A DNA stretch of 46,655 bases from a virus (lineage: Duplodnaviria > Heunggongvirae > Uroviricota > Caudoviricetes): the IMG/VR virus record IMGVR_UViG_2721755711_000007; one strand, given 5' to 3'. Below, in pieces: positions 35,965 to 40,723 of this stretch. A program made the translations under genes and the position numbers. Below the pieces are notes generated by a model. The model was not told the origin of the DNA and did not search any database. It worked only from the letters and a program-made list of their open reading frames with translations. Numbering within the stretch: position 1 is the first letter of the stretch; each line of letters starts with the position of its first letter.

Positions 35965-38660
35965 ATGGGTAAAGGCAGCAGTAAGGGGCATACTCCGCGC
36001 GAAGCGAAGGACAACCTGAAGTCCACGCAGTTGCTGAGTGTGATCGATGCCATCAGCGAAGGGCCGATTGAAGGTCCGGTGGATGGATTAAAAAGCGTGC
36101 TGCTGAACAGTACGCCAGTGCTGGACAGTGAGGGGAATACCAACATCTCCGGCGTCACGGTGGTGTTCCGGGCCGGTGAGCAGGAGCAGACACCGCCGGA
36201 GGGATTTGAATCCTCCGGCTCCGAGACGGTGCTGGGTACGGAAGTGAAATACGACACGCCGATCACCTGGACCATCACGTCGGCAAACATTGACCGACTG
36301 CGTGTTACCTTCGGCGTGCAGGCACTGGTGGAAACCACCTCAAAGGGGGACAGGAATCCGTCGGAAGTCCGCCTGCTGGTTCAGATACAGCGTAATGGTG
36401 GCTGGGTGACGGAAAAAGACATCACCATTAAGGGCAAAACCACCTCGCAGTATCTGGCCTCGGTGGTGGTGGGTAACCTGCCGCCGCGCCCGTTCAGTAT
36501 ACGGATGCGCAGGATGACGCCGGACAGCACCACAGACCAGCTGCAGAACAAAACGCTCTGGTCGTCATACACCGAAATCATCGATGTGAAACAGTGCTAC
36601 CCGAACACGGCACTGGTCGGTGTGCAGGTGGACTCGGAGCAGTTCGGCAGCCAGCAGGTGAGCCGTAATTATCATCTGCGCGGGCGTATTCTGCAGGTGC
36701 CGTCGAACTATAACCCGCAGACGCGGCAATACAGCGGTATCTGGGACGGAACGTTTAAACCGGCATACAGCAACAACATGGCCTGGTGTCTGTGGGATAT
36801 GCTGACCCATCCGCGCTACGGCATGGGGAAACGTCTTGGTGCGGCGGATGTGGATAAATGGGCGCTGTATGTCATCGGCCAGAATTGCGACCAGTCGGTG
36901 CCGGACGGCTTTGGCGGCACGGAGCCGCGCATCACCTGTAATGCCTGGCTGACCACACAGCGCAAGGCGTGGGATGTGCTCAGTGATTTCTGCTCGGCGA
37001 TGCGCTGTATGCCGATATGGAACGGGCAGACGCTGACGTTCGTGCAGGACCGACCATCAGATAAGGTGTGGACCTATAACCGCAGTAATGTGGTGATGCC
37101 GGATGATGGCGCGCCGTTCCGCTACAGCTTCAGCGCCCTGAAGGACCGCCATAATGCCGTTGAGGTGAACTGGATTGACCCGGATAACGGCTGGGAGACG
37201 GCGACAGAGCTTGTGGAGGACACGCAGGCCATTGCCCGTTACGGTCGTAACGTCACGAAGATGGATGCCTTTGGCTGTACCAGTCGGGGGCAGGCGCACC
37301 GCGCCGGGCTGTGGCTGATTAAAACGGAACTGCTGGAAACGCAGACCGTGGACTTCAGCGTGGGTGCGGAAGGGCTTCGCCATGTACCGGGGGATGTCAT
37401 TGAAATCTGCGATGATGACTATGCGGGTATCAGCACCGGCGGGCGCGTGCTGGCGGTGAACAGCCAGACCCGGACGCTGACGCTCGACCGTGAAATCACG
37501 CTGCCATCCTCCGGTACCACGCTGATAAGCCTGGTTGACGGAAGTGGCAATCCGGTCAGCGTGGAGGTCCAGTCCGTCACCGACGGCGTGAAGGTAAAAG
37601 TGAGCCGTGTTCCTGACGGCGTTGCCGGATACAGCGTGTGGGGGCTGAAGCTGCCGACGCTGCGCCAGCGACTGTTCCGCTGCGTGAGTATCCGTGAGAA
37701 CGACGACGGCACGTATGCCATCACCGCCGTGCAGCATGTGCCGGAAAAAGAGGCCATCGTGGATAACGGGGCGCACTTTGACGGCGACCAGAGCGGCACG
37801 GTGAATGGTGTCACGCCGCCAGCGGTGCAGCACCTGACTGCCGAAGTCACCGCAGACAGCGGGGAATATCAGGTGCTGGCGCGCTGGGACACACCGAAGG
37901 TGGTGAAGGGCGTGAGCTTCCTGCTCCGTCTGACCGTAACAGCGGACGACGGCAGTGAGCGGCTGGTCAGCACGGCCCGGACGACGGAAACCACATACCG
38001 CTTCACACAACTGGCGTTGGGGAACTACAGGCTGACAGTCCGGGCGGTAAATGCGTGGGGACAGCAGGGCGATCCGGCATCGGTATCGTTCCGGATTGCC
38101 GCACCGGCAGCGCCGTCTCGGATTGAGCTGACACCGGGCTATTTTCAGATAACCGCCACGCCGCATCTTGCGGTTTATGACCCGACGGTACAGTTTGAGT
38201 TCTGGTTCTCGGAAAAACGGATTGCGGATATCAGGCAGGTTGAAACCAGCGCGCGTTATCTTGGTACGGCACTGTACTGGATAGCCGCCAGTATCAATAT
38301 CAAACCGGGCCATGATTATTATTTTTACGTTCGCAGTGTGAACACCGTTGGCAAATCGGCATTCGTGGAGGCTGTCGGTCAGCCGAGTGATGATGCATCA
38401 GGCTATCTGGATTTTTTCAAAGGCGAGATAGGGAAAACCCATCTGGCTCAGGAGCTGTGGACGCAGATTGATAACGGTCAGCTTGCGCCTGACCTGACTG
38501 AAATCAGGACGTCCATAACGGATGTCAGCAATGAAATAACACAGACCGTCAATAAGAAACTGGAAGACCAGAGTGCAGCGATCCAGCAGATACAGAAGGT
38601 TCAGGTTGATACAAATAATAACCTGAACAGCATGTGGGCAGTGAAGCTGCAGCAGATGCA
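35965..38660 (+). pseudogene. J: Tail tip/central fibre protein J, 5' part (codons 1 to about 898), interrupted by IS insertion
   Basis: [24 protein letters not shown]... matches lambda gpJ; reading frame runs into the IS left end at 38661 and stops 5 codons later. Confidence 0.9.
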
Positions 38661-38732
38661 TGTAGTGGCACACTAAATTTGGCCACCTGATGAAAGGTGA
38701 TATTCTCACCACAACACAAAACAGGTGACTTA

Positions 38733-39044
38733 ATGAACAAGAAAACCAAACGAACCTTCACCCCTGAGTTCAGGCTGGAATGTGCACAGCTGATTGTTGA
38801 TAAGGGCTACTCATATCGACAGGCCAGTGAAGCGATGAATGTCGGTTCAACCACGCTTGAGAGCTGGGTACGCCAGCTCAGGCGAGAGCGCCAGGGTATT
38901 ACGCCCTCTGCCACACCCATTACTCCAGACCAGCAACGTATCCGCGAGCTGGAAAAGCAAGTTCGCCGTCTGGAGGAACAAAATACGATATTAAAAAAGG
39001 CTACCGCGCTCTTAATGTCCGACTCGCTGAACGGTTCACGATAG
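38733..39044 (+). CDS. IS3-family transposase OrfA (HTH), 103 aa
   Basis: [35 protein letters not shown]... ; slippery A AAA AAG at 38993-38999 near its 3' end. Confidence 0.85.
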
Positions 39045-39163
39045 CCGCCAGACTAAGTGACAGCCACACGGTTGTCAGCCTGTGTTCTGCTCTGGAAATA
39101 CACCGCAGCAGTTACCGGTACTGGCGAAAACGACGCGATACGGTTAATCCGGCACGAGTCAGG

Positions 39164-39910
39164 TTGTGCAGCGAAATACGCCGGGCGTGGAACCAAAGTC
39201 GGGGCTCTGCGGGCGCGCGCACTCTGGCTGAAATGCTGACTCAAAACGGCGTCCCGATGAGCCGTTACCGTGCCGGACGTCTGATGAAATATCTGAACCT
39301 GAGCAGTTGTCAGCCCGGAAAACATCAGTATAAAAATGCCCGTCAGGAGCATACCAGCCTGCCGAATCTGCTTGAGCGTCAGTTCGCAGTACCGGAGCCA
39401 GACCGGGTATGGTGTGGAGATATTACGTATCTCTGGGCAGGAAATCGCTGGTGCTATCTGGCGGTTGTTATGGATCTTTTTGCCCGCAGGGTTATCGGCT
39501 GGAGTCTGTCAGCGCATGCCGATACCGCACTGATAAGCAGTGCCCTGCGGATGGCCTATGAGACGCGTGGCCAACCCCGGGATGTCGTGTTCCATAGCGA
39601 CCAGGGAAGCCAGTATACAGGCCTTAAATATCAACAACTTCTCTGGCGTTGCAGAATAAATCAAAGCGTCAGTCGGCGGGGAAACTGCTGGGATAACAGC
39701 CCCATGGAACGCTTCTTCCGCAGTCTGAAAACAGAATGGGTGCCAACGAATGGTTACGCAGGCAAGGACGAGGCCCGGCAGCAAATTAATGATTACATAT
39801 TGAACTACTACAACAGCGTCAGACCTCACCATTATAACGGTGGGCTGACGCCGGAAGAGTCAGAGAACAGATACCATTTTTACTGTAAAACCGTGGCCAA
39901 TATTACTTGA
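39164..39910 (+). CDS. IS3-family transposase OrfB (DDE integrase domain); normally expressed as an OrfAB fusion by -1 frameshift, and the -1 frame probably opens further upstream near 38999
   Basis: DDE region with ...[10 protein letters not shown]...[15 protein letters not shown]... ; in -1 frame relative to orfA. Confidence 0.8.
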
Positions 39911-39918
39911 CCACTACA

Positions 39919-40723
39919 GCAGGACGGACGCCTTTATATTGCGGGTATCGGTGCCGGTATTGAGAACACCCCTGACGGCATGCAGAGTCAGGTGCTGCTG
40001 GCAGCAGACAGGATTGCGATGATTAATCCTGCGAATGGCAACACAAAGCCGATGTTTGTTGGTCAGGGCGATCAGATATTCATGAATGAAGTGTTCCTGA
40101 AACGCCTGACGGCCCCCACCATTACCAGCGGCGGTAATCCTCCGGCATTTTCCCTGACATCAGACGGGAGACTGACGGCGAAAAATGCGGATATCAGTGG
40201 CAGTGTGAATGCGAACTCAGGAACGCTCAACAATGTCACGATTAACCAGAACTGTACGATTAAGGGCATGCTGGAGGCGACCCAGGTCAGAGGAGATTTC
40301 GTTAAAGCTGTATCAAAAGCCTTCCCGAAAAAAGTCGGTACGTGGGGTAACACGGAAACACCAAACGGTACGGTTACAGTCACCATCAGCGATGATCATA
40401 ACTTTGACCGCCAGATTATTATTCCGCCCATTATTTTTAACGGTATAGCGTATGACGATCCGGGGAGCGGAAATAACCCAGGAGGCACGCGATACACGGG
40501 TTATGGTTTTGAAGTTCGCAAAAACGGCGTATTAATCGCATCCAGAGAAACTAAAGGGGCCATTCCCGGTAGTTACAGTGCAGTTATTGATATGCCGAGT
40601 GGCAGGGGAAGCGTCACTCTGGAGTTTAAGATTTTCCAGAAAGGCAATCAGGGGGCAGGCAATATCACCGACTGTACGGTGATTGTGACCAAAAAAGCCG
40701 CTTCCGGCATCAGTATTCGTTGA
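39919..40723 (+). pseudogene. J: Tail tip/central fibre protein J, 3' part (C-terminal receptor-binding region)
   Basis: In frame with the 5' part once the IS is removed; ...AGIGAGIENTPDGMQSQVLLAADRIAMINPANGNTKPMFVGQ... parallels lambda J; extreme C-terminal region diverges from lambda. Confidence 0.85.

Follow-up and report, generated by a model that had tools for sequence, protein, structure and literature searches.

An IS3-family insertion sequence interrupts the tail-tip gene J of a full-length lambda-like Escherichia coli prophage

What becomes of a lambda-like prophage when an insertion sequence (IS) enters J, the gene for its tail tip? We examined this question in the IMG/VR virus record IMGVR_UViG_2721755711_000007, a stretch of 46,655 nucleotides (nt) assigned to the Caudoviricetes and hereafter referred to as the window. 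An earlier reading made from the letters alone (the sequence-only reading) had proposed that an IS3-family element interrupts J in this window and leaves the prophage unable to make a working tail tip. We interpret the locus as an intact IS3-family IS, widespread in enterobacteria, that transposed into J of a full-length lambda-like prophage at the argU/intD site, and we put the probability of this interpretation at about 0.95.

Uninterrupted relatives and the restored J gene

We searched window positions 36661-41918 against 5,426 complete E. coli genomes using megablast. Many of these genomes carry an uninterrupted equivalent of 3997 bp, with both flanks 99.8-100% identical to the window. This is the span expected without the IS and one copy of its target (5258 - 1258 - 3). 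A single uninterrupted gpJ gene of 3498 nt is annotated in two of the relatives, HY220605 (locus L001) and STEC434 (locus L006). Over the flanks, the window is 99.94-99.99% identical to uninterrupted relatives, and the 5' part of J is 99.94-99.95% identical to the HY220605 and STEC434 genes. In pairwise BLAST comparison, window positions 22001-38660 correspond to positions 1-16660 of the STEC434 locus and window positions 39919-46655 to positions 16658-23394. The two alignments overlap by 3 nt on the relative, and these 3 nt are a single GCA.

Excising positions 38661-39921 in silico generates a J open reading frame (ORF) of 1165 amino acids (aa) with no internal stop. A single residue (T189I) separates the restored protein from WP_123122886.1, and the near-identical relatives all encode J as a single chain of 1165 aa. 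It is 82% identical to lambda J (1164 aa versus 1131 aa) and collinear with it over the whole length. Six gpJ Pfam domains are found in the restored gene, whereas J as written in the window is split, and the gene holds the J position in the order K-I-J-lom-stf-tfa that is annotated in near-identical relatives and in lambda, as expected of a lambda-type J. The continuous lambda-like frame proposed in the sequence-only reading was therefore recovered, and the translation across the junction is the one that had been written there.

Boundaries of the element

The inserted segment occupies window positions 38661-39918 (1258 bp) and lies in the same orientation as J (+ strand). Its ends are of the TG...CA type (TGTAGTGG...CCACTACA). 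The left terminal inverted repeat (38661-38686, + strand; TGTAGTGGCACACTAAATTTGGCCAC) and the right one (39893-39918, - strand) are each 26 nt long and imperfect. Of their positions, 20 of 26 are paired (77% complementary), and the perfect stretches are the outer 8 nt (TGTAGTGG) and a GGCCAC block. Imperfect repeats had been proposed at a length of about 27 bp; they are present, but position 27 is unpaired. We note that inverted repeats of similar quality are not rare by chance in this region, where other repeat pairs were found. We judge the terminal repeats to be real because they fall precisely at the two limits that the empty sites set for the inserted segment.

The target-site duplication GCA is present at 38658-38660 on the left and at 39919-39921 on the right. 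Both copies are evident in the sequence itself and in the 3-nt overlap of the flanks on the uninterrupted J of STEC434 and HY220605. The repeats and the duplication, whose failure on alignment had been named in advance as grounds for abandoning the proposal, were both upheld. The size of the element (within 1.2-1.55 kb), its imperfect TG...CA repeats and a target duplication in the 3-4 bp range agree with the IS3 family.

Transposase genes

The element encodes a transposase in two overlapping frames. The upstream gene, orfA (38733-39044, + strand), encodes 103 aa with a helix-turn-helix DNA-binding domain (Pfam HTH_Tnp_1, E = 8.8e-13). An A AAA AAG slippery heptamer, the type of site used for -1 programmed frameshifting, is located at 38993-38999 (+ strand) in phase with orfA. 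The catalytic part, orfB (38999-39910, + strand), follows in the -1 frame and matches the Pfam rve domain (E = 6.1e-27). This frame is free of stops from upstream of the heptamer to position 39910 and has an ATT codon just before the heptamer. The predicted OrfAB fusion, join(38733..38999, 38999..39910), comprises 392 aa. It contains the DD(35)E motif: D230, D290 and E326 are the catalytic residues, and 35 residues lie between D290 and E326.

The catalytic part scores 302.6 bits on the NCBIfam IS3-family equivalog NF033516, for which the cutoff is 160. An identical protein, WP_085968792.1, is annotated by the Prokaryotic Genome Annotation Pipeline (PGAP) as "IS3 family transposase, programmed frameshift" in four other copies. 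The arrangement of orfA in phase 0 and orfB in phase -1, joined at a slippery motif and carrying helix-turn-helix and DDE domains, is that of the IS3 family. The boundaries, repeats, ORFs and family profiles together bear out the 1258-bp IS3-family element that had been proposed, and the in-phase heptamer, the open -1 frame and the domain matches do the same for its orfA/orfB pair and frameshift site. We consider this copy of the IS to be intact and predict that it is active.

A separate observation concerns the 5' end of orfA. The Rfam family isrC (RF01387) matches positions 38729-38851 (+ strand) inside the J-borne IS over its full length (1-123 of 123 positions, 150 bits). The match spans from 4 nt before the orfA ATG to about the first 40 codons. 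Rfam describes isrC as an "island" Hfq-binding small RNA (sRNA) of Salmonella encoded between envF and msgA. By this match, the curated family coincides with the predicted 5' end of the orfA mRNA of this IS lineage, and the isrC locus of Salmonella may be an IS remnant.

Consequences for J

The insertion point lies 2696 nt into J, between the second and third base of codon 899 (of 1165), that is, after 898 full codons and 2 nt; its earlier placement at around codon 898 is correct. The 5' part of J (35965-38660, + strand) comprises codons 1-898 and the 2 nt of codon 899. It covers the hub, the fibronectin type III (FNIII) and immunoglobulin (Ig) domains and the helix bundle, and contains the Pfam domains FNIII-A_GpJ, Phage-tail_3, Ig_J and Ig_J_second. 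Reading through into the IS (38661-38676, + strand), together with the CA of codon 899, adds HVVAH and then reaches a TAA stop. The resulting ORF (35965-38676) encodes a truncated protein, hereafter J', of 903 aa, of which 898 residues are native. The 3' part of J (39922-40723, + strand) runs from the last base of codon 899 to the stop, comprises 266 full codons and has no promoter-proximal start. It matches the Pfam domain Phage_Tail_Tip from profile position 29 (of 139) onward and also contains Ig_GpJ_C. Restoring J completes the Phage_Tail_Tip match (profile positions 1-138, residues 872-1000, 109 bits), which then spans the junction; the IS thus bisects this domain.

In an alignment with lambda gpJ, the break corresponds to about residue 871. 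The helix bundle of gpJ comprises lambda residues 809-861 and is followed by the central straight fibre with the receptor-binding domain (PMC11101478). By this comparison, the predicted position of the break is just below the helix bundle, at the upper end of the central straight fibre. J' is thus predicted to keep the baseplate-hub, FNIII/Ig and helix-bundle parts and to be without most of the straight fibre and the whole receptor-binding domain; Ig_GpJ_C, in the 3' fragment, is the predicted receptor-binding domain. J' may still seed a hub, but we would not expect it to form the fibre or to bind a receptor. On its own, the prophage should yield non-adsorbing particles or none.

The sequence of events would have been simple. 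An active copy of the IS would have pasted into J at GCA, duplicating the 3-bp target. Translation of J would since then end five codons into the IS, and the prophage by itself would no longer make particles that adsorb via J. The break is inside Phage_Tail_Tip and upstream of the C-terminal receptor-binding domain, and for this reason no working tail tip is predicted from the gene as written. In this respect, the position of the break supports the proposal of a precise IS interruption that abolishes the tail tip.

Rarity and age of the insertion

The IS is present at this site of J in none of the 5,426 complete E. coli genomes. The exact 903-aa J' was found in one public assembly only, the short-read assembly SRR13900858. 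Its contig is 100% identical to window positions 29965-38690 (8726 nt) and breaks 30 nt into the IS. The insertion is real and lineage-specific, and it is probably recent. We base the recent date on the 100% identity of the IS copy to many others, on the 99.94-99.99% identity of the flanks to uninterrupted relatives, and on the absence of the allele from the complete genomes.

Spread of the element and other insertions in tail genes

Full-length copies 100% identical to the element occur at many unrelated loci on E. coli chromosomes and plasmids. A near-full-length copy was detected in 1648 genomes, and the best match reaches at least 99% in 937 records. No full-length copy was detected in the 50,697 phage records searched, which indicates that the IS does not normally belong to the genomes of free phages.

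We identified six further insertions of this IS in or next to lambdoid tail genes. Two are in J (L002 and L003; L725 and an O121:H19 lineage of STEC, E. coli strains that produce Shiga toxin), one is in gene I (L004; CDF6), one in lom (L009; ET210) and two in stf (L010 and L011; Z1323HEC0393 and FORC_042). All six have the same ends as the element in the window and perfect 3-bp duplications of their own (AAC, TTT, GTT, AGG, GGG and TGT). The sites equivalent to window positions are 38151-53 for L002, 40633-35 for L003 and 35504-06 for L004. No common motif was found among the target triplets and flanks of the seven insertions, including the one in the window.

Alternative explanations

Some further observations bear on our interpretation. 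A stimulatory RNA structure downstream of the slippery site was not detected (fold of 38975-39075, z = -0.55 versus shuffled sequences), and no Rfam frameshift element was found in the J-borne IS, although Rfam does match one in a second IS of the window. In addition, an ATG at 39980 opens an in-frame ORF of 247 aa (39980-40723) that contains a complete Ig_GpJ_C. The last observation raises the possibility that the split J is still functional: J' would form the tip, the C-terminal 247-266 aa would be made separately by restart at this ATG or from an outward promoter carried by the IS, and the two parts would associate to give infectious phage. We consider this very unlikely, because the break lies within a single Pfam domain, that of a trimeric fibre, and only the restored J has this domain whole. 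Moreover, no obvious ribosome-binding site was seen before 39980 when the sequence was read by eye, no near-identical relative encodes J in two parts, and the fibre of lambda is a continuous part of gpJ (PMC11101478). A different concern is the assembly. The IS is a multi-copy repeat at which short-read contigs break, and it could have been placed wrongly into a J gene that is in reality intact. An artefact of this kind is extremely improbable given that a perfect 3-bp duplication is located exactly at the IS ends, that the independent assembly SRR13900858 has the same left junction, and that the same insertion signature of this IS recurs at the six other tail-gene sites. A chimeric or misassembled junction was likewise rejected, since the junction is the same in the independent assembly. 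On the letters of the window, we see nothing that contradicts the transposition of an intact IS into J.

The recurrence of this IS in I, J (three times), lom and stf (twice) of related prophages could also suggest that the insertion reflects a target preference of the IS for the lambdoid host-range module, or selection for hosts whose prophage has lost its tail tip. If true, selection would "ground" prophages: the adsorption apparatus would be lost, and the cargo (emrE, the porin and iss/bor) and the lysis genes would be retained. However, the target triplets and flanks are without a shared motif, and the search is biased, since its design targeted IS copies near J. A rough estimate places the observed handful of insertions at about the number expected from uniform insertion; it is based on 6071 IS places and on 21,928 J-region places in 5,167 genomes, or about 4 in each genome. 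We therefore regard preference or selection as an unlikely explanation of the insertion in the window, and it is quite unlikely that the repeated hits in these genes of argU-type and related prophages were brought about by something other than chance. The data suggest that the recurrence in the host-range module is compatible with chance, and it is the only mildly interesting residue of the analysis. Transposition of the IS into J as a simple event remains our preferred interpretation.

Prophage context and other lesions

By its gene content, we identify the window as a full-length lambda-like E. coli prophage. It runs from an integrase gene next to tRNA-Arg (argU, the DLP12 / intD site) to a pin-like serine recombinase gene. 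Its modules include int, the genes exo, bet and gam, a cI-like repressor gene with a cro-like gene, and O, P and ren. These are accompanied by the cargo genes emrE and ybcK-ybcO, by rusA and Q (quuD), and by an ompC/nmpC-type porin gene. It further contains a lysis cassette, iss/bor, the terminase and head genes, a complete tail module, and lom, stf, a macro-domain gene and tfa. Of 60 annotated STEC434 genes that we mapped onto the window, only J and a DUF4222 gene are disrupted, and the other 58 are intact. Apart from the two IS elements and one intergenic difference in a G-run, no further inactivating lesion was found among the genes mapped from this relative. The G-run, at about 19800-19815 between iss/bor and ylcI, has seven G here versus six in STEC434 and is the sole indel outside the IS elements.

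The second IS is an IS629-like element of 1311 bp (1466-2776, - strand) with TGAACCGCCCCGGG... ends, located inside the DUF4222 gene near int and absent from near-identical prophages. Its best matches elsewhere are 1310 bp long and at most 99.6% identical. Its Rfam match is the ALIL frameshift pseudoknot, at 2325-2441. Two overlapping ORFs (1665-2399 and 1508-1957) take the place of a single orfB, and for this reason the copy looks frameshifted and decayed. Its flanks, ATG and ATC, form an imperfect 3-bp duplication.

Lesions also differ between relatives. Tail gene K (34593-35336, + strand; a C40 peptidase) is intact in the window and has an internal stop in STEC434 (L006 12593-13336). On this comparison, different members of the prophage family carry different single lesions. 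An xis-like ORF next to int (1020-1391, - strand) matches the excisionase-type domain HTH_17 over profile positions 2-32 (of 51) only and then continues into int in another frame. PGAP annotates its counterpart in relatives as an incomplete pseudogene. The partial ORF and this annotation together suggest that excision may be impaired across the prophage family.

The tail-fibre module downstream of J contains several further features. The side tail fibre (41452-44484, + strand; 1010 aa) has a very long region of low-complexity repeats rich in alanine, serine and threonine at roughly residues 110-470 and histidine-rich repeats of the GAHTHS type near its C-terminus. Between stf and tfa, a gene of 300 aa (44481-45383, + strand) overlaps the stf stop and encodes a macro-domain protein (Pfam Macro, E = 6e-19). 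A protein of this kind is unusual in a tail-fibre module; it might act on ADP-ribosylation. The Rfam E. coli sRNA candidate IS009 (RF02111) matches positions 45735-45933 (+ strand) over its full length (218 bits) in the 3' end of tfa. The pin-like recombinase (46065-46655, - strand), with Resolvase and HTH_7 domains, closes the window. We looked nearby for an invertible tail-fibre segment and found no inverted repeats of at least 18 nt in 43000-46655, so that none is evident within the window.

Fate of the prophage

The sequence-only reading had called the prophage probably cryptic. The break in J is predicted to disable it, but with 58 of the 60 mapped genes intact it is better described as recently disabled than as an old remnant. 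In annotation, we suggest pseudogene status for J, with a mobile element named as the interruption; the prophage would be entered as adsorption-defective and otherwise complete. The allele illustrates the first step in prophage decay cleanly and in a form that can be dated, with a single disabling hit in the tail tip, and the intact near-identical relatives serve as controls.

Whether the lesion might be reversed depends on the route. Loss of the IS by excision had been offered as the way back to a working J. IS3-family transposition follows a copy-out-paste-in pathway in which the donor copy is regenerated, and J is therefore not repaired in the ordinary course of transposition. A possible route is precise excision where the IS-excision enhancer (IEE) and the transposase are both present; the precise excision of IS3-family elements is frequent, or greatly stimulated, only with both, in hosts of the enterohaemorrhagic E. 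coli (EHEC) type (bioRxiv 10.1101/2023.06.07.543989). For defective lambdoid prophages, induction and packaging are still possible, and recombination with other prophages of the same cell can rescue them (PMC2669165). E. coli genomes carry a median of about three J-region homologues each, which makes recombinational repair of J plausible. The case raises no new question: it is already established that IS elements inactivate prophage genes and that such genes are at times rescued, through IEE-driven excision or recombination between prophages.

Comparison with known systems

We compared the restored J to lambda gpJ (1132 aa), with which it shares the series of Pfam domains and the gene order K-I-J-lom-stf. 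The restored protein is 33 aa longer. Most of the extra length falls within the helix-bundle region, in a gap-rich stretch that aligns near lambda residues 835-842, and there is a smaller indel in the receptor-binding domain. Since this domain is the most diverged part of the protein, the receptor of the restored J need not be LamB.

Within the IS3 family, we describe the element as IS911 / ISEc31-like, and the closest label that we propose is ISEc31-like, of the IS911 lineage. Its 90% cluster includes a protein that carries the NCBI label "IS3-like element ISEc31 family transposase" and has 94% identity over 301 aa; ISEc31 is an ISfinder name in use at NCBI and in MobileElementFinder. At the DNA level, many E. 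coli copies form a large related class with 90-95% identity (about 91.5%) to the element in the window. Under the ISfinder rule, an element counts as an isoform if its identity to the reference exceeds about 95% (aa) or 90% (nt). When the element is measured against the ISEc31-family-labelled protein and the related class rather than against the ISfinder reference itself, it lies at the border of this rule. PGAP calls copies 99.9-100% identical to it only "IS3 family transposase", and the generic label is likewise the only one in PLSDB and NCBIfam. Depositors have named the clustered proteins "IS911 transposase orfB", on an identical OrfB, and "IS602". We also considered ISEc52 as a name and rejected it at only about 64% nt identity. 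A full-text search of the literature did not find the inverted-repeat sequence, and the papers that mention ISEc31 merely list it.

IS911 of Shigella dysenteriae, the model element for the copy-out-paste-in pathway in the IS3 family, is about 1250 bp long versus 1258 bp here. The two share orfA and orfB in phases 0 and -1, the A AAA AAG motif, DD(35)E, a 3-bp duplication and TG...CA ends. The end sequences presumably resemble each other as well. The element is not IS911 itself, and the comparison is one of features rather than of an alignment to an IS911 reference. An AUU start has been cited for OrfB of IS911 (bioRxiv 10.1101/2023.06.07.543989, reference 33); the corresponding feature here is the ATT codon before the heptamer.

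As a whole, the finding is an ordinary one, in which both the IS and the gene are known, the insertion signature is that of the textbooks and the route of disabling is well understood. The lambdoid prophages of EHEC provide the closest parallels, because there, too, an IS in an essential or late gene led to the label "defective", as in nu1::ISEc8 of Sp4 in O157 Sakai and in stx2::IS1203v (PMC2669165; bioRxiv 10.1101/2023.06.07.543989). Those cases involve other IS elements and other genes, whereas the prophage in the window carries only two IS elements and no other lesion among its mapped genes.

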